A stretch of DNA of 64,000 nt from positions 32,001 through 96,000 of the forward strand of contig CAXXWX010000017.1 in NCBI GenBank assembly GCA_963675745.2. Direction: 5' to 3'. The notes beneath the pieces are model-generated. The model searched no databases. It was not told the DNA's origin and saw only the letters and a program-made list of their open reading frames with translations. Below, one piece after another: positions 3 through 60,593 of this stretch. This stretch comes from Phycisphaerae bacterium. Its GTDB lineage: Bacteria; Planctomycetota; Phycisphaerae; UBA1845; Fen-1342. Each line of letters opens with the position of its first letter. The first letter of the stretch is position 1. Both the position numbers and the translations under genes were made by a program.

Positions 3-1043
3 GGGCCGCTTCAGCTAATCGGATGCACGTTCACCGACAATATCGCAGGTCTTGGCAATGGTGGCGCGTTGCATCACAGCGGGAGTTCACCTCTGATAGT
101 GGTAGAATGTTGTTTTCTGCATAATCTGGCGCCGCTGGGCGGCGGAGGCGCGATCTTCGATGAGGGCGATGCGCTGGATTCGAGTCTGATCAACTGCCGA
201 TTCGCTGGCAATTCTGCGGAGTTCGGCGGGGCAATCGTTCTTGGTGAGTTTCTGACGGGCGTGTCGTTTGTGAATTGTGTCCTTAGCGGCAACCGCGCTG
301 ATTCCCACGGCGGCGGGGTATATGCCTTTGGTGGCTGGTTGGGACTGGTCAACTGCACGTTCATCGCCAACGACGCAGTGGCAAATGGGGGTGGTATATA
401 CGCTGGCTCCGACGTCACGATCCGCAACTGCATCTTCTGGTCGAACGAGGACGCGGATGGCGTGGACGAATCGGCGCAGGTGCATGACCCAGGGTGCTGT
501 GGCGAGATCATCATCGCGCACACGTGTATTCATGGCTGGACGGGTGTCTTTGGCGGACCTGGAAGTCATGGTCAAGATCCGCTACTGATAGACGAGGTCG
601 GTGGTGATGGGATCCCCGGCACGAGTGACGAGGACCTTCGGCTATCTCCAGGTTCACCCTGCATCGACAGCGGCGATAACACAGCTATCCCGCCGGACTT
701 GTTCGACCTCGATGGCGATGGCGACACGAGCGAGGCGATGCCCTTTGATCTGGCTGGCCGGTCGAGGTTTATCGATGATCCAGCAACGCCGGACACCGGC
801 GCTGGCACACCACCAATTGTCGACATGGGCGCATACGAATTCCGATCGCACAGCTACGGTGACGTCAACTGCGACGGATGGGTCAACAATGGCGACATCG
901 ACGCTTTTGTATTTGCGTTGTCGTATCCAGAGCAGTACCCGACTGAGTACCCGGGATGTGACATAATGCTCGGTGACGTCAACGCTGACGGTTGGGTGAA
1001 TAACGGCGACATTGATGCGTTTGTCATGTTGCTCGGGCAATAA
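3..1043 (+). CDS. Secreted beta-helix (pectin lyase-like/polymorphic membrane repeat) protein with choice-of-anchor-Q-like region and C-terminal dockerin-like domain; 5' end lies outside the window
   Basis: Frame is open from base 3. GGA(I/V)/FxxN repeats, SPCIDSG...VDMGAYE motif, then GDVNCDGWVNNGDIDAFV...GDVNADGWVNNGDIDAFV. Confidence 0.85.
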   Translation, partial: GPLQLIGCTFTDNIAGLGNGGALHHSGSSPLIVVECCFLHNLAPLGGGGAIFDEGDALDSSLINCRFAGNSAEFGGAIVLGEFLTGVSFVNCVLSGNRADSHGGGVYAFGGWLGLVNCTFIANDAVANGGGIYAGSDVTIRNCIFWSNEDADGVDESAQVHDPGCCGEIIIAHTCIHGWTGVFGGPGSHGQDPLLIDEVGGDGIPGTSDEDLRLSPGSPCIDSGDNTAIPPDLFDLDGDGDTSEAMPFDLAGRSRFIDDPATPDTGAGTPPIVDMGAYEFRSHSYGDVNCDGWVNNGDIDAFVFALSYPEQYPTEYPGCDIMLGDVNADGWVNNGDIDAFVMLLGQ

Positions 1044-16732: not shown

Positions 16733-16802
16733 GTCGGGTGACAACTGAAGTGGTGTTCGCGTGAGAACAGAACATTACACGACAGCTCTTGGAGGCTGAA
16801 AC

Positions 16803-18425
16803 ATGATAGCCATCAATCTTCAACGCCGCTGGACACTCGCCGCTGCAGCCGCGAGCGTTGCTTGTGTCCTGGCCGCGGTTGCCACAGTCGGGACGGCGCG
16901 TGCCAGCGAGCCAGAGTGGCAGGTCGCGACCGCGAAACTGATCGCCGCCGACGGCGTGCCGGCGCAACGCTTCGGGCGGTCGGTGTCGGCGTCCGGCGAG
17001 CGGGTTCTGATCGGCGCGCCGGAAGATACGGCGAACGGCACCGGCGCCGGCGCGGCGTACATCTGCCAGTTCGCCGGCGGCGTGTGGAGCCAGCGGGCCA
17101 AGCTCCTGCCGAATGACCCCAACGAGATGCAGCATTTCGGCTGGTCGGTCGCGCTGGATGGCGACGTCGCCCGTCGTCGGCGTGCCGCACGACGACGAGG
17201 TGCACTTCGATGCCGGCGCCGTCTACGTCTTTTTATATGACGGAGCTGAGTGGACGCAGGCCGCCAAACTGATGGCGTCGGACGGCAGGTACCAGGACCA
17301 GTTTGGCACGTCGGTGGCCGTGCGCGGCGACGTGATCGCCGTCGGGGCACCGCTGGTCAACCCCGACACGGACGAGCCCGATACCGGGGCTGTGTACGTC
17401 TTTCGCCGCGACGGGGCAAGCTGGATCGAAGAGGACAAGCTCGAGCGACCGGATGATTTCCAAACGGTGGTTGAGTTTGCGCGCCTCGGCGCCTCGGTTG
17501 CGATCGGCGATGACGTGATCGTCGCCGGTGCCTGGGGGGATCGTGAGGACCGCTATGGCGAGTTCGCGTTCGGCTCGGCCAGTGTTTTCCACTATGACGG
17601 CCTGGCGTGGTCCGAAGCAGGCCCGCTTGATGCCCAGCGACGGCGCGGATTATGACCGCTTTGGCAGCGCCGTGGCGATCTGCGGCGAGGTAATCGCCGT
17701 CGGCGCGCCGCGCGTTGACTATGAAGACCCGAACACGCTCGAATTCACCAAAGACGGCCGGCTCGGTCTACGTCTATCGCCACGATGGAGCCGATTGGGT
17801 CGAGGAAGCCAAACTCATCTCGCCCGCGCTGGGCGGCGCCGACCTGTCGCACGATGACTACTTCGGCGGTGCCGTCGCGCTGGACGGTGACACGCTGCTG
17901 ATCGGCTCGCGCTATGACGACGACTGGGGGCTCAACGCCGGCGCGGCGTACGCCTATCACTATGACGGCGCCGCGTGGTTCGAGCAGTTCAAGTTTGTTC
18001 CCACCTGGATCGGCTATCGCGACGCGTTCGGCGGCTCGGTCGCCCTGTCGGACGGCCACTTCGCAATGGGCGCCGTCGGCGATGATAGTCAGGGTGAACT
18101 GGCCGGGGCCGCGTATGTCTTCGAGTTTGAGAACGACTGCAATCGCCAACGCGCGTTCCGGACGAGGACGACATCGCCGCCGGCACCAGTGCCGACCTGA
18201 ACGAGAATGGCATCCCCGACGATTGCGAACAGCCGCCGATTGGCGATGTCAACTGCGACATCATCTGCCAACAACGCCGACATCGACGCGTTTGTGCTGG
18301 CGCTGCACGACTACGCGGCGTACCTGACGGAGTATCCCGGATGCGACAACGCGGATGTCAACGGCGACGGCTGGGTCAACGCGGGCGATATTGATCCGTT
18401 CATCGCGCTGCTGGCAGCGCAATAA
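16803..18425 (+). CDS. Secreted FG-GAP (integrin-alpha-like) repeat beta-propeller with C-terminal dockerin-like domain; multiple frameshifts
   Basis: Signal peptide. Repeated FG.SVA..GD...VGA...GAVYVF units across ORFs 16803, 17113, 17528 and 17715. Ends NNADIDAFV..YPGCD.ADVNGDGWVNAGDIDPF. Confidence 0.8.
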
Positions 18426-51108: not shown

Positions 51109-52607
51109 GCCTACCCGGACTGCGACTTCATGCACGGCGACATCAACGGCGACGGCTACGTGAACACCTTTGACACCTTGAGCGGCGTCAAAGGCAGGCC
51201 GGCGACATCGACGCATTTGTCAGACTGACGTCGGCGGTGGGCAGCTTCCGGGCGATGCGTTACGTCTATGACGGCGAGAACCGCCTGATCGAAGCCCGTG
51301 ACGCCTACCCGGCGCTCGCGAGCCACACCAAGGCCGAGTACGAATACGACTATCTGGGCCGGCGGATCGCGAAGATCGTGTACAATTGGAACACTGGTAC
51401 GTCGGCGTGGAACGCCACGGCGACGGTGCATCGCAAGTTCATCTACGACGGCTGGCGGCCGATCATGGAGCTTGACGCACTTGATGATGATGCGGTGATC
51501 CGCAGCTACACTTGGGGACTGGATCTGTCTGGTCTTGTGGGATCGATTTCCAACCGGTCAGGCCTCGACGGCGCCGGCGGCATCGGCAGCCTGCTCGCCA
51601 TCAGCGACCCCAATGACCCCAACGACCCGCACGGCGACTTCGTCATCTTCCACGACGCCACCATTGACAGAACTACGTCCTGTCAAAGGCAGGCCGGCAA
51701 CGTCGGCCACCTCTTCAACCTGAGCCTCTCCGACCCGAACGACCCGAACACGGCGTCGGACGCCATCGTCGCCCACTACGAATACGACCCCTACGGCAAC
51801 GCAGTCACCACGACCGGCGACTACGCCGACGAAAACCCCATCCGCTTCAGCACGAAGTACTGGGATGACGAGACGGGCTTCGGGTATTGGGGCAAGCGCT
51901 ACTATGATCCGCGGCTTGGTAGGTGGACGACGCATGATCCGATTGGGATGCGCGGAGGACGAAATCTCTATGCCTACGTTGGAAACTCCCCAATTCACAA
52001 ACGCGATCCGGACGGCAGAGAGATGGCCAAAGAACCACCGCGGTCTTCTGCTTGCGGGGAGTTTTGCAATGAGCATTACCCCGATGAGTCGCTGGCACAA
52101 GCCTGTCTAGCGGGTTGTGAGAGGGGCTGGGCGGCGCCCACTTGGAAGGACTGCGCGAATCACTGTGAAGCGGAGCATGGTTCGGAAAGGGGTGAAGCAT
52201 ATAACGCATGCTACCAGGGCTGCATGTCGGGAGCGCCCGACCTATACACTCCCGTGGTGTGCGACCGTATTTACCATATCGTAGGCCATGGAACGAAGAC
52301 TGGCAGTGTGGCCTTAGATGACGGCACTACGGTGGACGCGGCGTACATGGCGAAAGTGGTATGTCCCAAGCTGTGCTGGGGTGCCAGAGTTGTATTTTGG
52401 ACGTGTTGGACCGGCGACAACACCACGGCGGTCGAAAACCTGTTGCGCGCATGCCCGAAGATCAAGAAAGCCGTGGCATGCACCAAGAACCTCACTACAT
52501 ATGATTTCACTCCGTTCTATTGGTGTAGTGGGCAATGGAAGACCATACCCAATCCAGGCTATCGGCCGCCGGAGGACTTCGCCATTGCTGAAGGAGGTAG
52601 TCCATAG
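51109..52607 (+). CDS. Rhs cassette 1 (5'-truncated): half dockerin-like module, Rhs core, Cys-rich C-terminal toxin-like domain
   Basis: YPDCD..GDINGDGYVN[insert]GDIDAFV runs into YVYDGENRL, YDYLGRR, YEYDPYG, RFSTKYWDDETG..RYYDPRLGRW..DPIG, DPDG. Confidence 0.88.
51167..51199. mobile_element. 33-bp hairpin insertion, copy 1
   Basis: CCTTTGACACC-TTGAGC-GGCGTCAAAGG-CAGGC interrupts the VN.GDIDAF motif and shifts the frame. Confidence 0.7.
51661..51694. mobile_element. 34-bp hairpin insertion, copy 2 (frame preserved)
   Basis: CCATTGACAG-AACTACGTC-CTGTCAAAGG-CAGGC splits the expected DA(N)GNV Rhs motif. Confidence 0.7.
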
Positions 52608-52611
52608 AGAT

Positions 52612-53151
52612 ATGACATCACTCAAACCGAAGGCATCTTCTGGTAACCGCGCAGTTAACATCAAGGCGTCGGGGGAGGCCCAATGGGGCCGAGGCAGACT
52701 TCTGGTGACCCTGCTTGGAAGCGCAGGAGCTGTCGCGATCGCGTTGGTTGTCTATAATTGCTGGAACGACCGTCGCGATGACCGATGGCTCTATAGAAGC
52801 ACCGTTGTGCTCAGAGGTGAGACGTCGGGTGAAGGTCTGACTCTCCATGCGCACAGGCCGGACCGGCAGATGGCACACATAATCGATGTATATCCCGAAG
52901 GATCCCCCGAAAAGGTCGCGGAGCTTCACACGGACACGAAGGAGTGGTCCTGGCTGGGTGCGTCCGAGTTTCATGCTCTGACGGAGGACAGCTTGCGCCG
53001 GTGGTTTTCTACCGGCCCGGCGGCGACGGACGCCAATGCGCTGGCGGAAGCGCTGATGCACATTGTGGCCGGGTTTGACGAAGAACGCGACTTGTGGAGC
53101 GCAAGCGAGGATGTGACGGGCGTAAGTGTGGCGCGTGTCGAGTGGGACTAG
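52612..53151 (+). CDS. Single-TM hypothetical protein, candidate immunity/accessory protein for cassette 1
   Basis: Starts 4 bp after the Rhs stop, AAGGAGGT upstream, one hydrophobic helix. Confidence 0.6.
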   Translation: MTSLKPKASSGNRAVNIKASGEAQWGRGRLLVTLLGSAGAVAIALVVYNCWNDRRDDRWLYRSTVVLRGETSGEGLTLHAHRPDRQMAHIIDVYPEGSPEKVAELHTDTKEWSWLGASEFHALTEDSLRRWFSTGPAATDANALAEALMHIVAGFDEERDLWSASEDVTGVSVARVEWD

Positions 53152-53152
53152 C

Positions 53153-54868
53153 ATGACCAGGCCTACGGCCGGCAGCTTGTTCGCGTATGCGTACGACAAC
53201 ATCGGCAACCGGCTGACGCACGAGGACAATCGCGACTGGGAATACACCGCCAATGAGCTGAATCAGTACGATGCCGTCGAGACGGATGATGGCAACACGT
53301 TGGTGATCGCCGAGGGGTATCGGTTCGACGAGGATGGGAATCTCGAAGAGGCGTTCGTCACCGGCGACATGAACTGCGACGGGTTGGTGAACAATGGCGA
53401 CACCGACGCGTTTGTGCTGGCCTTGATGTACGGCTGTGCGACGTACGCCACGTATTACCCATACTGCGATTGCCTGAACGGCGACTTCAACGGCGATGGG
53501 CAGGTCAATAACGGCGACCTCGACCCGTTCGTGGCGGCCTCGGGCAACCAGAGCCGCGACTACATCGCCCGGCGGTACGTCTACGACGGCGAGAATCGGC
53601 TGATCGCGGTTGAACCGACGGCCAATCGCGACGCCGCCACCGTGCGTTATACTTACGGGTATGATTACCTGGGTCGGCGGATCTGGAAGGCGACGGAGCC
53701 GTGGGATCCGAACGCCAGCGGCGGTGCCTGGGATCCGAACAACCCGACCGCGCTGACGAAGTTCATCTACGACGGCTGGCGACCGCTCATGGAGCTTGAC
53801 GCACTTGATGATGATGCGGTGATCCGCAGCTACACCTGGGGCCTGGACCTGAGCCAGTCGCTGGATGGTGCTGGCGGCATCGGCGGCCTGCTCGCCATCA
53901 GCGACCCTGACGACCCGAACGACCCCAACGACCCGCACGGCGATCTTCTGGTCTTCCACGACGCCACCATTGACAGAACTACGTCCTGTCAAAGGCAGGC
54001 CGGCAACGTCGGCCAGCTCTTCGACCTGAGCCTCTCCGACCCCAACGACCCGAACACGGCGTCAACGGCGATCGCCGCCCACTACGAATACGACCCCTAC
54101 GGCAACGCCGTCACCACCACCGGCGACTACGCCGACGAAAACCCGATTCGTTTCAGTACGAAGTACTGGGATGATGAGACGGGGTTTGGGTATTGGGGTC
54201 ATCGGTACTATGATCCACGCTTGGGGCGCTGGACGACGCATGATCCGATTGGGGAGCAGGGCTGGGCGAACTTGTATGCAGCTTTGCGCAACAACGCGTT
54301 CGCCTGGATTGACCCCGACGGTGCTGAGGAGCATCCGCCGACCAGCCAGCCTTCGAATCCACCGACCACGCAACCGTCGCCACCTATGAAGACCCCTGTA
54401 GAACCGACACCGGAGCCGCCGTGGCGCACGCCAGCGCCGCCCAAATGGCGACACCTAAAACCGCCGACTGTCAAGTACAGGATGTGCGGCTGCCACACCG
54501 GAGACAATGGCAACGACCCGGGCTCACCGATCATCGACTCAAAGTGTTGTAAAGTAGTGGACATCTATGGCCATGGCACCGAGGATCAGGGACCAACATA
54601 TGATGATAACAAGAACTACTTCAGCGGCCTGTATTTCGCGGGCATCTGTCACAGGCTATGCCCCGGAGCCACAGTGAATCTCAGGGTCTGCTACGGCGCG
54701 ATGAATAAGCCCGAACGCGATGACGAGCTTCGGCGATACGCTCTTCCTTGCCCGAACATCAAGGAAATTTGTGCCAGCACTGGGAAATACTACGATGCGC
54801 CGTTGTGGCCCGATTGGTACGATGGTGACTGGCGGTGCGTCAGCGTGAATGAACATGTGGCAAGATAG
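53153..54868 (+). CDS. Rhs cassette 2: YD repeats with an intact internal dockerin-like module, Rhs core, Pro-rich linker and Cys-rich C-terminal domain
   Basis: YAYDNIGNR, YTANELNQY, FDEDGNL, GDMNCDG..GDFNGDGQVNNGDLDPF, YVYDGENRL, core DPIG/DPDG. Confidence 0.92.
   Translation: MTRPTAGSLFAYAYDNIGNRLTHEDNRDWEYTANELNQYDAVETDDGNTLVIAEGYRFDEDGNLEEAFVTGDMNCDGLVNNGDTDAFVLALMYGCATYATYYPYCDCLNGDFNGDGQVNNGDLDPFVAASGNQSRDYIARRYVYDGENRLIAVEPTANRDAATVRYTYGYDYLGRRIWKATEPWDPNASGGAWDPNNPTALTKFIYDGWRPLMELDALDDDAVIRSYTWGLDLSQSLDGAGGIGGLLAISDPDDPNDPNDPHGDLLVFHDATIDRTTSCQRQAGNVGQLFDLSLSDPNDPNTASTAIAAHYEYDPYGNAVTTTGDYADENPIRFSTKYWDDETGFGYWGHRYYDPRLGRWTTHDPIGEQGWANLYAALRNNAFAWIDPDGAEEHPPTSQPSNPPTTQPSPPMKTPVEPTPEPPWRTPAPPKWRHLKPPTVKYRMCGCHTGDNGNDPGSPIIDSKCCKVVDIYGHGTEDQGPTYDDNKNYFSGLYFAGICHRLCPGATVNLRVCYGAMNKPERDDELRRYALPCPNIKEICASTGKYYDAPLWPDWYDGDWRCVSVNEHVAR
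53967..54000. mobile_element. 34-bp hairpin insertion, copy 3 (identical to copy 2)
   Basis: Same sequence and position as 51661-51694. Confidence 0.7.
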
Positions 54869-55652
54869 TGCTGATCACCATCATCGTACTGGCCCGTGGC
54901 AGCAGCTGGCGCCACTTCACGTGTTGCTATTCTGGTCGCTATTGTGTCTGTCTTGTGCATTCAGTACGTGCGAGTTTGCTGGTGGTCGTGTAGGCCAGAA
55001 TGGCGACCCATGGGCAAAAGGATATTCCATGAGAATCGCCACGCAACCAAACATGCAGGGCCGTGCCCACTTTGCCACATCACAGCGTGATCCGGGCGCC
55101 ACTGTCATGTACATAGAATACGGCCTCGACACGATGTTAGTCGAGTACGAGATTGATCGCACGGGGGCGGGATGCTATAGGGTGCGTGATACAGCATCGC
55201 GTGCGCTATTAGAAGGAGAATTCGAGGAGCTCATTCCTAGAGCACAAACTGACATTGCTGCTGTGGTTCCGGACACACGACCGCCACGAGTTCGTAGTTG
55301 CGCTGAGGGACTCGCCAGCATTGTGGCGTTGATCTGGTCAGACTCGATTACTAATGGGTATGCCAGCGATCACGGTGTAACGGCGGTTCTGCTCCGCGGA
55401 GGTAAACGCCAACGGCCAGTGCTGTGGGCGCGTGTGTTCCTGGGTACACTATGGATGGTCGGCTGCTTGGTTGTTTGGAGGTGGCATTTGCGAAGGTACA
55501 GGCGTCGGGCAAATCTCTGCATGAATTGCGGGTACGATCTGCGCGCATCACCCACGCGATGTCCTGAGTGCGGCACTGAAATCGGCACGCTACGGATGCC
55601 GTTGAGTTCGAACTCTGCGGCTGGCGAATCGCGTCAGCGAACCAGAGAATGA
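54849..55652 (+). CDS. Two-TM hypothetical protein with C-terminal zinc ribbon, candidate immunity/accessory protein for cassette 2
   Basis: Overlaps the Rhs stop. Two hydrophobic segments and CMNCGYDLRA...CPECG. Confidence 0.7.
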   Translation: MNMWQDSADHHHRTGPWQQLAPLHVLLFWSLLCLSCAFSTCEFAGGRVGQNGDPWAKGYSMRIATQPNMQGRAHFATSQRDPGATVMYIEYGLDTMLVEYEIDRTGAGCYRVRDTASRALLEGEFEELIPRAQTDIAAVVPDTRPPRVRSCAEGLASIVALIWSDSITNGYASDHGVTAVLLRGGKRQRPVLWARVFLGTLWMVGCLVVWRWHLRRYRRRANLCMNCGYDLRASPTRCPECGTEIGTLRMPLSSNSAAGESRQRTRE

Positions 55653-55939
55653 CGGCCGAGAGGCGTGCTGCACCGGCACCGACCCGAACGACGCCGATCC
55701 GAATGACGCCGTGGCTGGCGAGCAGTTCGATTATGCGTACGACAGCATCGGCAACCGCCTGACGCATGAAGATGACCGCGATTGGGAATACACCGCCAAC
55801 GAGTTGAACCAGTACGACGCCGTCGAGACGGATGACGGCAACACGCCGGTGATCGCCGAGGGGTATCGGTTCGACGAGGATGGGAATCTCGAAGAGGCGT
55901 TCGTGAACGGCGACATGAACTGCGACGGGTTGGTGAATA

Positions 55940-55972
55940 CCCTTGACACCTTGAGCGGCGTCAAGGGCAGGC
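55940..55972. mobile_element. 33-bp hairpin insertion, copy 4
   Basis: CCCTTGACACC-TTGAGC-GGCGTCAAGGG-CAGGC. Absent at the homologous site near 53393. Confidence 0.75.
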
Positions 55973-56088
55973 CGGCGACACCGACGCGTTTGTAATCGCC
56001 CTGATGTACGGCTGTGCGACGTACGCCACGTATTACCCGTACTGCGATTGCCTCAACGGCGACTTCAACCGCGATGTGCAGGTCAACA

Positions 56089-56121
56089 CCTTTGACGCCT
56101 TGAGCGGTGTCAATGGCAGGC
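56089..56121. mobile_element. 33-bp hairpin insertion, copy 5
   Basis: CCTTTGACGCC-TTGAGC-GGTGTCAATGG-CAGGC. Absent at the homologous site near 53510. Confidence 0.75.
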
Positions 56122-56303
56122 CGGCGATCTCGACCCGTTCGTGGCGGCCTCGGGCAACCAGAGCCGCGACGTCATCTCTGGCGGACGACGGCTTCTTGAA
56201 ACGCCGCGATTGTTTGCCGGTGAGGCTGTAGCCAGGCCCGGTCAGGCTGTGATCGGCATGGTCCGTCCGGGCCAGGATTAAAAAAAGCAGGGGCCGACGA
56301 TCA

Positions 56304-56368: not shown

Positions 56369-59300
56369 TCAGCGGGCCAATAGCTCGACGAACGCGTCGA
56401 TATCTCCATTGTTGACAAAGGTATCCTGGTTGATATCGCCCAGGTTGATGTCGCAGCCGGGGTAATTCGCGGCGTAGGCGTCGGGGTCAGAGATTGCCAT
56501 CACAAACGCGTCGATGTCGCCGTTGTTGACCCAGCCGTCGCAGTTAAGGTCACCCAACTCGTACTGCTGGTCGATCACCTCCAGGTTGACGCCGGTCGCC
56601 GCGTATGCCACGCGCCAATAGAGTCCCTCCGGCAGTGTTGGCAACTGGGTTTGATCGAACTCCCCCGAGCGGCTGCCGCATTCCACGACGGCGAAGCCGT
56701 CGCCGAGGCCGGGTACAAACCCGTCAACCAGGACGACGGCCAGCTCACCGCCGAGGATGGCACTGCCGGTCACGTCGAGGACACAATATTCGTCGCCGGC
56801 GGTCGTGCCGCCGAGCTCAATCCAGAGCGTGCCGTTGGCCTGTTGCTTGAAATCGCCCTGGACGTTCAGGGTGCCGGTGAGGATGTCGTCGTTGATCGAG
56901 CCGCCGGGGTAAACCGCTCCGTCGCCGTTCACAACGGTGCCCGTGATGAGCCCCGTGCCTCCGAGGTGGGCGCCGGGGCCGAGGTGCAGCTCGCCCGCCG
57001 GCACGCTGTTGGGATCAACGCCCAGCGCAGCGCGGCCGTCGCCGACGTCGATACTCGCAGCGCCCGCGCGACCGACCATCAGAACCGGCGTTTCGAACGT
57101 GGAACCCGTGCCGCTCAGCGTCACGTGTCCGCCGGAGCCTTCCTGCAAGCCGAGGAAGCAGGCGGAGTTGGCGTTGAAGTGGCCGCCGTTGGCGATGCTC
57201 AGCGTGGCACTGCCGGCGTCGCCGAGCTTGCTTGGGTAGGCGCTGGCACTCTCGTATTTCGAGCCGAGGCCGTCCACGGTGATGTTGGCGACAGCGCCCG
57301 CTTGTGAACCGGCAAACAGCTCGCCGTTGGAGTATGCTTCCGACCCGCCGAGAATGCTCAGAGCGCCCTGCCCGCTGTTGCCGACGACTATCGGCGCGAG
57401 GTCCGCGCTCAGCAGGCTGCCGCCATCAACAGTCACTGTTCCATCCGAGCCGGCGATGTCGCCGACAATGATCCAGCCGGTGTAGTCGAGCGTGCTGACG
57501 GTGGCCCCGCCGCCGACTTCGAGCGCGCCGGTCCCCCAATAGCCGATCCGCAGGCCTTCGGTCGTCGTCAGCGTCGAACCGGCCCCATCGACAATCACAT
57601 CGCCGTGACCGGTGGTCGCCACGCCGGCCTCGAGCCAATGTGCCACGCCGGCGGCCTGCCCTTGAATCGTCAGGCTTCCAATACCCTGGTTGCCGACCTG
57701 CATACCCTCGGTTGTGCTCAAGACGGTACCGGCGCCGCTGGCGGTGAGTTCACCGTCACCGGTGGTGTCCCAGCCGATGATCAACGACTGTGCCGCCACC
57801 GATGCGGTGCCGGCGACGTCGAGCGCAGCCTGGCCGGCCACGCCGACGGCGATTGTGTTGGTCGCCATGAGGGAAGTACTGTCGCCCGTCGCGCTGCCGT
57901 CTCCGGACCCTGTGCTGCCGCGTCCCAGGTAAATCCACGCCGCATTGACGCTGGCGCCCTCGGTGAGGGTGCAGGTACCCTGGCCATCCCAGCCAACCGT
58001 CAGGCTGTCGCCGATGGTCGCCGTTGAGTCGTCCCCGCTGACGCTGAATTCAGCAACTCCGATCTGGTTACCGCCGACCACGATCTGGTTGGCGTCGATG
58101 GCGCCGCCATCGCTGGCGGTAAGCGCGCCGCTACCCTGATAGCCGACTTCGATCGAGTTAGTCACGTCAAGCCGGGAACCGCCGTTTGCCACCGACGTCG
58201 TGCCGTCGGCCGTCTCGGCCAGGCCGATGTTCATCCAGTCGGCGGAAGCCGCGCCACCGCCGAGGATGCTGAGCGTGCCCTGGCCGCCGTCGCCGACGTT
58301 GAGGTAGTTGTCAGTCGCCAGCGACGATCCGGCACCAGTGACGGTAACGTCGGCGGTGGCGGTGTCGAACCAGGCGATCCTGATCGTGTTGAGCACATCA
58401 ACGTTGCCGCCGTCCGCGACCGTCAGTGTCGCGGTGCCGCTGAGCCCGAGGTTCAGCGTGTTTCCGACGTCCAGCAGGGAGTCGGCGCCGGTGATGGTCG
58501 CCTCGCCGTCGCCAGTCGCGCTGTAACCCAGATCGACGTTCTCGGCCTGCGCCGTCGAGCCGCCGCTGATGGTCATCGTGCCGGTCGCCTGATCGCCAAT
58601 GCCCATCGCTGCTCCAATGGCCGAGATGGCGGCGCCGTTGCTGATGGTGGCGGTGCCCGGGCCGTACCGGCCAACGCGGATCAGCTCGTCGACCGTGAGC
58701 ACAGAAGGTGCATCGGCCACGTTCAGCGTCCCCACGCCGGTCGTGGATGAACCGATATTCATCTCACGCACGTCCAGTGATCCGCCGTTCAGCACGTCGG
58801 CCCGACCTTGGCCGCCGTCACCGACATAGATGAGGTTGTCCGTTGCCAGTGATGACTCGGCATCGGTGACCGTCAGTTGTCCCGAGCTGCCCTCGAACCA
58901 GGCGAGGCGGATCGTGTTCAGCACGTTGACCGCACCGCCTGTGGAAACGGTCAGTTCGGCACTGCCGTTCTGTCCGAGGTTCATCGCGTTGCCGACGTCC
59001 AACATGGAATCAGTGCCGGTGACAGTAAGGTCACCGTCGCCGGTCGTGCCGCAGCCCAGATCGACGACCTCGGTTTGCACCGATGAGCCGCCGCTGACGA
59101 TCATCGTGCCGGTGGCCTGATCGCCGACAACGAGCCCCGCGCCGGAAGCGGAGACGGTTGCCCCGTTGCTGATGGTCGCGGTGCCGGGGCCGCCCTGGCC
59201 GACGCGCATCGTGTTTGCCACCACCAGCTCCGACGACGCATCATCGACGGTGAGTGTGCCCTCGCCCGTGGGGCTTACGCCGACATTCACCTCCTGGGCC

Positions 59301-60304
59301 TCGATCAAGCCGCCGTTCAATACGTCGGCTTGTCCTTGACCGCCGTCGCCGACCAGCAGTGAGCCGTTCAACAGGAAGATCGAGTTCGGGTCGGTGACAG
59401 TGAGTTCGCCGGTGCTGTCGGCGAACCAGGCCACGCGGGCGATCGACTCGACGCTGGCGCTGCCGGCCCGCTCAATCGTCAGAGCGGCGGTCCCGGACAT
59501 CCCCACGTTCAACGAGCCCGAGAGATCGAACGAGGCCTCGGCGCCACGAACGGTCACTGCGCCGTCGCCCGTCGCGCCGTTTCCGATGTTTGAATGCACG
59601 CTGCTGATCGAACCGCCGTCCCGTACCAGAACGGTGGCCGTGCCTGCGTCTCCGACGGTGAAGTGGTCGGTCAGCGTCAGCGAGGCATCTGTCCCATAGA
59701 CTTCCACGGATCCCTGGTTCCCGAAGTTATGTCCACCGATGATGGACCGGAAGGCCGTAACGGAAGCGCCGTCATGGATGACGACGCTCCCGTCACCGTC
59801 ATTGGCCACACCCAGCGCGTCGGAGAGCGTGGCGGTGATCCCCGGGCCGAAGTCGAGCATTCCGTGCGCGCCCTCCCCCAAGCCGACGTCGGCCGTCTCC
59901 GCCTCAATCGTCCCATCCGTCAGCCACAAGCTGCCCACCTGCCCGGCGGATTCGCCTACTACGAGCCCGCGGCCGGCGAGGCTGAGCGTATACGTGATGC
60001 CCTCCAGGTCCAGGGCAACCATGTCATCGCGCACCAGACACGCGCTGTTGGTGATGTTCATCCCCGGGCTGAACGTCACCGAGTACGCCGCCGTTTGCCC
60101 CAGGTCGAAGATTGCCGTGTCGTTGGGATCGGGCACGGACTGTGGGCTCCAGTTGGTGGCGACGTCGAACGTGCCGCCGTGCGGTTCGTCCCAGAAGATA
60201 TCGGCCGCCATGGTGGTTTGGACGGTCAGTACCGCCACCACCAATGTCGCCAGGCGTACCCGCTTCGCCCACCTGCCGCGTGATTCGCTTGTGCTCTTTC
60301 GCAT
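56369..60304 (-). CDS. Large secreted T5SS/PEP-CTERM-associated repeat (beta-helix) protein with C-terminal dockerin-like domain
   Basis: AGGAGG RBS and signal peptide. Many VG..G.G.L.V..G/GS.L repeats. Ends GDLNCDGWVNNGDIDAFV..YPGCD..GDINQD.FVNNGDIDAFV. Confidence 0.9.
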   Translation of the reverse strand: MRKSTSESRGRWAKRVRLATLVVAVLTVQTTMAADIFWDEPHGGTFDVATNWSPQSVPDPNDTAIFDLGQTAAYSVTFSPGMNITNSACLVRDDMVALDLEGITYTLSLAGRGLVVGESAGQVGSLWLTDGTIEAETADVGLGEGAHGMLDFGPGITATLSDALGVANDGDGSVVIHDGASVTAFRSIIGGHNFGNQGSVEVYGTDASLTLTDHFTVGDAGTATVLVRDGGSISSVHSNIGNGATGDGAVTVRGAEASFDLSGSLNVGMSGTAALTIERAGSASVESIARVAWFADSTGELTVTDPNSIFLLNGSLLVGDGGQGQADVLNGGLIEAQEVNVGVSPTGEGTLTVDDASSELVVANTMRVGQGGPGTATISNGATVSASGAGLVVGDQATGTMIVSGGSSVQTEVVDLGCGTTGDGDLTVTGTDSMLDVGNAMNLGQNGSAELTVSTGGAVNVLNTIRLAWFEGSSGQLTVTDAESSLATDNLIYVGDGGQGRADVLNGGSLDVREMNIGSSTTGVGTLNVADAPSVLTVDELIRVGRYGPGTATISNGAAISAIGAAMGIGDQATGTMTISGGSTAQAENVDLGYSATGDGEATITGADSLLDVGNTLNLGLSGTATLTVADGGNVDVLNTIRIAWFDTATADVTVTGAGSSLATDNYLNVGDGGQGTLSILGGGAASADWMNIGLAETADGTTSVANGGSRLDVTNSIEVGYQGSGALTASDGGAIDANQIVVGGNQIGVAEFSVSGDDSTATIGDSLTVGWDGQGTCTLTEGASVNAAWIYLGRGSTGSGDGSATGDSTSLMATNTIAVGVAGQAALDVAGTASVAAQSLIIGWDTTGDGELTASGAGTVLSTTEGMQVGNQGIGSLTIQGQAAGVAHWLEAGVATTGHGDVIVDGAGSTLTTTEGLRIGYWGTGALEVGGGATVSTLDYTGWIIVGDIAGSDGTVTVDGGSLLSADLAPIVVGNSGQGALSILGGSEAYSNGELFAGSQAGAVANITVDGLGSKYESASAYPSKLGDAGSATLSIANGGHFNANSACFLGLQEGSGGHVTLSGTGSTFETPVLMVGRAGAASIDVGDGRAALGVDPNSVPAGELHLGPGAHLGGTGLITGTVVNGDGAVYPGGSINDDILTGTLNVQGDFKQQANGTLWIELGGTTAGDEYCVLDVTGSAILGGELAVVLVDGFVPGLGDGFAVVECGSRSGEFDQTQLPTLPEGLYWRVAYAATGVNLEVIDQQYELGDLNCDGWVNNGDIDAFVMAISDPDAYAANYPGCDINLGDINQDTFVNNGDIDAFVELLAR

Positions 60305-60593
60305 GATGATTCCTCCTACGGATGCGTCGCTCCTGCTTGGCATCACGGCGCCCTGGGGCTGGTTCCCTGCAAGTCGCGTGTGATGACCCTGCCCTATGTC
60401 AACTCCCGCCAGTCCGGCCCGCGTCGAGCCGAGGTGACCGGGGGTGCCGGTGCCGGTCACCCCGCCGTTATCTCAAGCGGGTGTTGTTCGGATGCGTGAC
60501 GCAGGTAGGGAGTGTTTTTTGCGTCGTCGTTCGGCGGCGTCAGTGGGACGTACCATGCATGGTGTTTATCGGATGTGCGCGAGCGGGCATGAT

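Follow-up and report, generated by a model that had tools for sequence, protein, structure and literature searches.

A dockerin-like module inside the YD-repeat shell of Rhs toxin tails in a Phycisphaerae bacterium

Rhs polymorphic toxins (TIGR03696; RhsA, 7q97, PMC8765631; Zhang et al. 2012, PMC3482391) are recognized by a YD-repeat shell, a core that ends in DPxG, variable C-terminal domains, a short gene after each tail, and arrays of start-less tails. All of these features recur at the locus described here, a group of three Rhs tails in a 64,000-nucleotide stretch of DNA (the window) from a Phycisphaerae bacterium (assembly GCA_963675745.2, contig CAXXWX010000017.1, positions 32,001 to 96,000), and among the relatives of these tails. 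Unlike the described toxins, however, this family has a folded module of about 60 residues, resembling the dockerins of cellulosomes, inside the run of repeats, and has no PAAR or VgrG family on record.

Dockerins and Rhs proteins have been found together before. The clostridial ScaO and ScaP scaffoldins and dockerin-bearing RhsA proteins (PMC6780208, PMC3413522) also combine the two in one exported polypeptide, and binding of the ScaP2 dockerin to type II cohesins was observed in the clostridial study. Those proteins, from the clostridia and from A. cellulolyticus, belong to Gram-positive producers of cellulosomes, and the dockerin is given in them as a module of its own that precedes the Rhs part, together with cohesins and peptidases; here it lies within the shell, in toxin–immunity arrays. 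With the cellulosomal cohesin–dockerin pairs (PF00404, PF00963; PMC5748583), the present system shares a duplicated calcium loop with a helix, species-specific residues at loop positions 10 and 11 (the known specificity residues of dockerins), and candidate partners with a cohesin fold. It differs from them in its two conserved cysteines, in its weak Pfam scores, and in candidate partners that are mostly single-domain proteins with PEP-CTERM tails rather than tandem scaffoldins. A non-cellulosomal cohesin/dockerin surface system, the 'Planctosome' of the Nemodlikiaceae, has been proposed in planctomycetes (PMC6461901), but for peptide degradation and with a lamin-tail anchor; neither Rhs cargo nor a PEP-CTERM anchor nor a genome-specific code is mentioned in the passages of that article that were consulted. 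Teneurin-like proteins of bacteria (PMC13018210; 9ifo) are YD-shell toxins with signal peptides that are presumed to be displayed on the surface, but through N-terminal lipoprotein, S-layer or wall-binding modules, and the main text of that article mentions neither dockerins nor planctomycetes. Also on neighboring ground are PT-TG toxins with cohesin or dockerin domains, mentioned in PMC13483458, and the giant proteins of Omnitrophota (BioRxiv 2023.11.21.568195).

The first 300,000 characters of PMC3482391 mention neither dockerins nor EF-hands, and no description of a dockerin within an Rhs shell was found in the literature, supplements and most subscription papers aside (it could be listed in the domain tables of PMC3482391 or PMC13483458). 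Four database homologues are already marked with both families by Pfam. This is a real variant of the Rhs polymorphic toxins, and apparently an undescribed one, although the combination of dockerin and Rhs is visible in databases. Indirect evidence of a host-coded role in docking is good.

A dockerin-like insert in one turn of the shell

The intact copy of the module is found in cassette 2 (53153..54868, + strand), an open reading frame (ORF; 53126/53153–54868) that lacks a signal peptide and the shell's N-terminal portion. It encodes, in order, the last YD hairpins, the turn FDEDGNL (53324..53344, +), the 57-residue module (53363..53533, +), the YD element YVYDGENRL (53576..53602, +), an Rhs-associated core that ends in DPDG (54089..54322, +), and a cysteine-rich C-terminal domain of 181 residues (54323..54865, +). 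The first-pass annotation had placed the module between these two YD elements, and its coordinates are confirmed, including nine residues that were elided from the sequence as given there. The core matches TIGR03696 with 79.6 bits (residues 322–399; cut-off 32.5), and that of cassette 1, which also ends in DPxG, with 82.4 bits. By analogy with RhsA (PMC8765631), the DPDG of cassette 2 is the predicted site of self-cleavage.

The module has two calcium-type loops (53366–53401 and 53483–53518), each of 12 residues with Asp or Asn at positions 1, 3, 5, 9 and 12. The profile comparison that had been suggested for cassette 2 thus recovers the Rhs core but not the dockerin: on its own, the module reaches only 14.8 bits with Pfam Dockerin_1 (PF00404), under the cut-off of 22.9. 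The same insert does pass in the homologues P0014 (28.5) and P0054 (34.3), as does one terminal tag in the window (25.5). Since the window module falls below the Pfam cut-off, it is assigned by its motif and by the fold of the corresponding module in a relative. Modules that are only about 45% alike still have the calcium ligands and two cysteines in common.

The fold was modeled with AlphaFold for a 1,176-residue stretch of a full-length protein from a related genome (G026), using a 45-sequence alignment (predicted local distance difference test, pLDDT, 82; predicted template modeling score 0.78). The model predicts an Rhs shell with a dockerin-fold insert. Its top 16 structural matches are all YD/Rhs shells (Rhs, teneurin, Tc) with Z 17–26, and the beta-spiral aligns with 8qjb over 822 residues (Z 26.3); the window cassette corresponds to the last part of this shell only. 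The insert appears as a pair of helices (878–888 and 915–926) between the strands 860–865 and 933–937, with one helix after each loop. Next after the shells, the insert (about 850–930) is matched by dockerins: 6kg9 (Z 7.8, root-mean-square deviation 2.5, 66 residues aligned), 2ccl (Z 6.6) and 4fl4 (Z 6.5). The dockerin fold proposed at the outset is supported to this extent, through the relative.

How widespread is this architecture? In a set of 122 homologues, the insertion site could be parsed in 101, where the linker is shorter than 35 residues in 61 (usually 9, in keeping with the earlier assumption that the two YD elements are normally a few residues apart) and longer than 60 in 40. Altogether at least 47 of the 122 have a module at this turn, 40 by linker length and 7 by eye or profile. 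Many of these docked homologues are full-length, with about 1,800–2,900 residues (open frames up to 2,931), and the loci extracted from relatives have start-less tails arrayed behind full-length proteins. When the module and its flanks were searched in 61 genomes, near-full-length matches in open frames were found in many genomes of the same family, and the architecture is in open frames in at least 13 of these besides our own. Wherever both were parsed, the module lies 259–319 residues ahead of the core motif. A scan of GTDB contigs (22 of 64 parts covered, 75 loci kept) yielded nine loci with the module flagged by script and about five more by reading, all among the 23 titled Phycisphaerae or Planctomycetota; the module was seen in none of the remaining 52, mostly from Verrucomicrobiota and Lentisphaerota. 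The internal dockerin thus extends well beyond this assembly and across the lineage, which refutes a chimera at the level of the family. (The FastTree trees have many weak forks, and no order of gains and losses is claimed.)

The turn that receives the module is variable in length and flanked by two fixed DxxGN/R turns. Other types of dockerin occupy it in P0020, P0029, P0038, P0040, P0042, P0054, P0055, P0117 and L229, and this variety suggests that modules are exchanged at one site in the Rhs protein. Two homologues that are not docked, P0007 and P0008, have an insert of 88–96 residues in a variable turn one hairpin upstream.

A code shared with terminal tags, and a candidate socket

Modules of the same kind form the ends of many exported proteins of this genome (G000): a strict pattern detects 112 two-loop terminal tags, a looser pattern 140. 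The first-pass annotation had matched the cassette 2 module to the tags of three secreted proteins in the window. Two of these tags are intact and are 53% and 60% identical to it; the third protein (about 16800–18425, +), an exported repeat protein, is spread over several frames and its terminal tag is frameshifted as well. One of the intact tags (858..1043, +) ends the unrelated protein of gene 3–1043 and is the one that passes the Dockerin_1 cut-off. The other (56372..56554, −) ends a 1,363-residue protein (56369–60460, −) with 16 type V secretion/PEP-CTERM-associated repeats (TIGR04393), where it stands in place of an autotransporter barrel or PEP-CTERM tail. The tag is not always terminal or single: two proteins of this genome, on contigs C1 (about 248900) and C15 (about 111100), have it at the N-terminus, before a domain of about 320 residues, and three tag-like modules stand in tandem in L079/L082/L085 (G022 C18:83402–83965).

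The Rhs modules share a recognition code with the terminal tags of their own host. Cassette 2 has Asn-Gly at positions 10/11 of its module, the same as the tags of its genome. In the tag-rich genomes, the dipeptides at these positions are NG (G000), GF (G017), IL/VL (G026), WR (G010, G022), VG (G011, G035), FG (G006, G019), FA (G027) and NF (G030). The match was evaluated for 35 Rhs modules and 241 terminal tags from 11 genomes, with G030 included, G014 left out for want of a parsed module, and one false Rhs row (C23) removed. For 11 other genomes, the tags were taken as best matches to a window tag, 3–16 per genome; this way of sampling gives preference to tags like those of G000, a bias that runs counter to the result. 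The identity of the Rhs modules at positions 10/11 was 0.69 to tags of their own host and 0.12 to those of other hosts, which none of 200,000 permutations reached; when the genomes were merged into eight code classes, the observed value was attained by one permutation in 40,320, and seven of the eight classes matched themselves best. The host dipeptide is present in at least one loop of 28 modules and in neither loop of seven. The excess of identity to own-host tags peaks at positions 9, 10, 11 and 14 (0.28–0.63), being at most 0.24 elsewhere and nil at positions 2, 8, 13 and 17. Nor does the code simply follow the Rhs tree, since two well-separated clades of Rhs proteins in G026 both mostly carry the host's I/V-L code, while the sister of the window cassette carries AA/AL.

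If these modules are plugs, what would be the socket? Proteins with the Pfam Cohesin domain (PF00963) were ruled out as the general partner: the 13 matches inspected are all in large cargo-type proteins, and matches occur in only 17 of 61 genomes, with none in G011, G017, G019, G026, G030 or G035. The single match in G000 is in a cargo protein that itself bears a tag.

The candidate partner is a different, mostly PEP-CTERM-tailed family with a predicted cohesin fold that Pfam misses. The model of its domain has a pLDDT of 94, and the top 15 structural matches (VIA) are all cohesins (Z 7.4–9.2, root-mean-square deviation about 3, about 125 residues aligned). In the ESM Atlas, the protein resembles a cohesin cluster (0.85, a lead only); a sequence search of the PDB with the family profile gave no match. 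In G000, the family consists of four PEP-CTERM-tailed copies (one of them frameshifted), two that end in a tag, and a single copy that has repeats together with a membrane tail; members are located at C26:546234–549393, C15:276050–276851, C15:242175, C9:6973, C1:21641 and C4:24348. A search with a single sequence reached only G000 and G017, and an alignment was needed for wider recovery; the profile search then gave 107 representatives (50% clustering), 70 of which have PEP-CTERM tails, and a few family members hold two domains. The alignment includes the PEP-CTERM tail, so that matches weaker than E 1e-15 were not counted, and by this measure strong matches are present in 17 of 26 tag-rich and in 0 of 10 tag-poor relatives. 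Exosortase was found in all five genomes tested, and for eight of the 52 PEP-CTERM-tailed ORFs there is a paralogue with a tag at its end instead. None of the literature searched paired cohesins with PEP-CTERM. The predicted complex between the window module and one cohesin-fold paralogue scored 0.07 and 0.09 (mark 0.32), which is no evidence either way. The idea that the module is a surface handle used in common with the other tagged proteins has gained the host-matched residues at positions 10/11 and a candidate family of anchors.

The three tails and their surroundings

The three Rhs tails lie between a remnant that flanks an insertion (about 51000) and the large tagged gene that ends at 56369. 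All three are orphan tails, since no N-terminal shell of their family was found in the assembly: with seven full-length relatives as tblastn queries, no parent gene encoding the shell was found in this 91%-complete assembly, but only weak matches to an unrelated Rhs protein of 4,887 residues on contig C13. The proposed search for a full-length parent thus gave full-length relatives, in other genomes only. There are 16 matches to the Rhs core in G000, and remnants of the module are also present in Rhs tails on contigs C3 and C15.

The module had also been reported from the same position in cassettes 1 and 3, and here the earlier description needs to be qualified. Cassette 1 (51109..52607, +) begins inside the second half of the module and retains only the second loop, frameshifted and without an upstream YD element, followed by an open Rhs tail with its own core (51783–52016, +) and a different C-terminal domain. 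Cassette 3 (55711..56175, +) is broken; what remains of it comprises upstream YD elements and the two loops, each frameshifted, and it stops before any Rhs core, with no core downstream.

These frameshifts are caused by a small hairpin element that has a TTGAC...GTCAA stem, a variable loop and a GGCAGGCC tail. It sits within coding sequence, usually at a point where Gly follows an Asn codon. Copies of 35 nucleotides, which shift the frame of the module, are found in the module loop of cassette 1 (51166..51200, +) and in loops 1 (55939..55973, +) and 2 (56088..56122, +) of cassette 3, while identical 36-nucleotide copies that stay in frame are found in cassette 1, downstream of the module (51660..51695, +), and in cassette 2 (53966..54001, +). 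The copy at 51166–51200 is covered by contigs of the sequencing runs X1 and X2 and that in loop 2 of cassette 3 by an X1 contig, but both runs come from one sample, possibly the source of the assembly, and are not independent support. Further copies are present on C15 (two), C5 and C18 of G000 and in G028 (L198, L200), and the strict pattern occurs in two of 61 genomes. At a guess, we take the element to be of repetitive extragenic palindromic (REP)-like origin. Short peptides such as GPVSNRS and GVPPV also recur within Rhs tails (window 51537–51570; C3 and C19 of G000; P0005), and these presumably derive from other palindromic, REP-like repeats.

The C-terminal domains vary as expected of polymorphic toxins. 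Of 60 such domains from docked and neighboring cassettes, 52 have no Pfam match, including both from the window; those above the cut-off, all in relatives, are GH-E, Ntox16 (two) and PLA2G12. The domains of cassettes 1 and 2 have a GHG...C pattern in common, a peptidase-like lead only, and in 52011–52604, 54323–54865 and G000 C15:35850 alike a strand and then a cysteine come after the GHG motif. This pattern resembles that of caspase or C80 peptidases. In the ESM Atlas, the cassette 2 domain resembles DUF4347 and C80 clusters (0.87 or less), again a lead only. The putative toxins are each followed by a putative immunity gene, one of 179 residues with a single hydrophobic segment (52612..53151, +) and one of 267 residues with hydrophobic segments and a C-terminal zinc-ribbon-like motif (54849..55652, +), which overlaps the stop of cassette 2. 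Neither matches a known immunity family, and their role is inferred from position; a short ORF follows most Rhs tails in the arrays of relatives as well.

What might the module do?

How do these proteins leave the cell? No PAAR or VgrG was found in the Pfam lists of the docked homologues or in direct scans of five of them, and no type VI secretion system (T6SS) sheath in G017 or G006, both of which have full-length docked Rhs proteins (a sheath is present in G000, G026 and G022). By a heuristic criterion, a hydrophobic stretch (12 residues, score at least 2.0) is present within the first 70 residues of 22 of 45 docked proteins, and most of the others look N-terminally truncated. The module had been suggested as a display or delivery route; it does not stand in for N-terminal delivery, since signal-like N-termini are kept in full-length relatives, and it more likely acts after export.

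We give about an even chance to the view that the dockerin-fold module is an outward handle that clips an exported, toxin-loaded capsule onto cohesin-fold anchors on the producer's own surface. The full-length protein would leave the cytoplasm by way of its signal peptide, and the shell would fold around the self-cleaved C-terminal domain, as in known Rhs proteins. The module would then bind calcium and, by way of positions 9–11 and 14 in each loop, dock on proteins of cohesin fold. These are likely anchored by exosortase through their PEP-CTERM tails and probably serve, in each genome, at least 100 further tagged proteins as well. The capsule would presumably act on a touching cell. Orphan tails like those in the window would supply new toxin ends by recombination, and, because the tails include the module, such a swap would keep the handle. 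The module should point outward because the lumen of the shell holds the toxin, of 15–30 kDa and partly unfolded in known Rhs proteins (PMC8765631), and the C-terminal domains in question have mostly 160–300 residues; a buried module, moreover, would have little reason to track the code of the host.

Would the capsule be held on the producer or sent to others? It is possible, if rather improbable, that a released capsule binds sockets with the same code on neighboring cells and is aimed at close relatives without the immunity gene. This is predicted just as well by the code match and a surface-anchored cohesin-fold family, polymorphic toxins are agents of conflict within species (PMC3482391), and the arrays consist of variable tails, each followed by a short gene. 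However, more than 100 unrelated exported proteins share the tag, which better fits self-display, and the producer's own sockets would presumably catch the capsule first. The module could also be a passenger, copied from the abundant tags and kept as a calcium-bound stabilizer or a recombination handle, its code maintained by gene conversion with no docking at all. Module DNA is indeed 68–77% identical to many tags, both cassette 1 and the C3 remnant start within the module, different dockerin types sit in the same turn, and close relatives lack the module entirely. But conversion of whole domains should raise own-host identity at every variable position, and there is none at 2, 8, 13 and 17, while calcium ligands and cysteines persist in modules that have otherwise diverged; we therefore consider a passenger unlikely.

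Still a little less credible is a tag that acts as a sorting signal for an export or assembly machine, with no lasting anchor and no connection to the cohesin-fold family. The eight cases out of 52 in which the tag replaces a PEP-CTERM tail, and the tag-rich genomes without a strong cohesin-fold match, would fit such a signal, but a code that changes fast, is specific to each genome and lies at positions known to contact cohesins is better suited to a lock-and-key pair, and the cohesin-fold family is itself fast-changing and tracks the tag-rich genomes. An assembly chimera or chance resemblance, finally, can practically be dismissed: no listed contig from public runs spans the cassette 2 module with both flanks, and tags are repeats able to mislead assemblers, but the same architecture is found in open frames in the 13 or more other family genomes and in the 47 or more database proteins.

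Several observations weigh against an outward handle on the producer's surface. Its orientation depends on reasoning from known shells. The genomes are kin and not independent, so that the permutation counts overstate the match, and the code has departures, with FS/MA and ND/FT in G019 (host code FG), SF/SF in G030 (NF), and IN/IG or IN/VG in three G026 modules; in G014, where tags are few, there is nevertheless an Rhs protein with another type of dockerin. The cohesin-fold family owes its assignment to Z about 9, the best Foldseek E being 0.004 with none at 0.001 or better, and PF00963 is matched by 0 of 92 aligned family members at E 0.1. Nine tag-rich relatives have no strong family match (45 candidates per genome scored), and a diagonal scan found no tandem scaffoldin among the repeat proteins listed. 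Only eight of the 60 C-terminal domains have a Pfam match, four of them above the cut-off. No parent gene was found in this genome itself, and of the three modules in the window two are broken.

To our knowledge, it is poorly understood how signal-peptide Rhs toxins without PAAR or VgrG are held on the surface and reach their targets. Here, a particular handle can be named, along with the two residues of its code and a candidate family of sockets, and the question thus becomes testable with small recombinant domains. A folded domain is also tolerated by the YD shell in one of its turns. The results suggest, further, that the unexplained terminal tags in this family, 100 or more in each genome, make up a display system coded by species, with cohesins that Pfam misses. 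Much more tentatively, one may imagine a lineage-coded, exosortase-anchored cohesin–dockerin 'plug board' on cell surfaces across the Phycisphaerae, with the Rhs plug set into the capsule wall and the code determining both where the capsule is mounted and which neighbors it can reach. If true, this would constitute a route for kin recognition and toxin aiming without T6SS, contact-dependent inhibition or Tc machinery.

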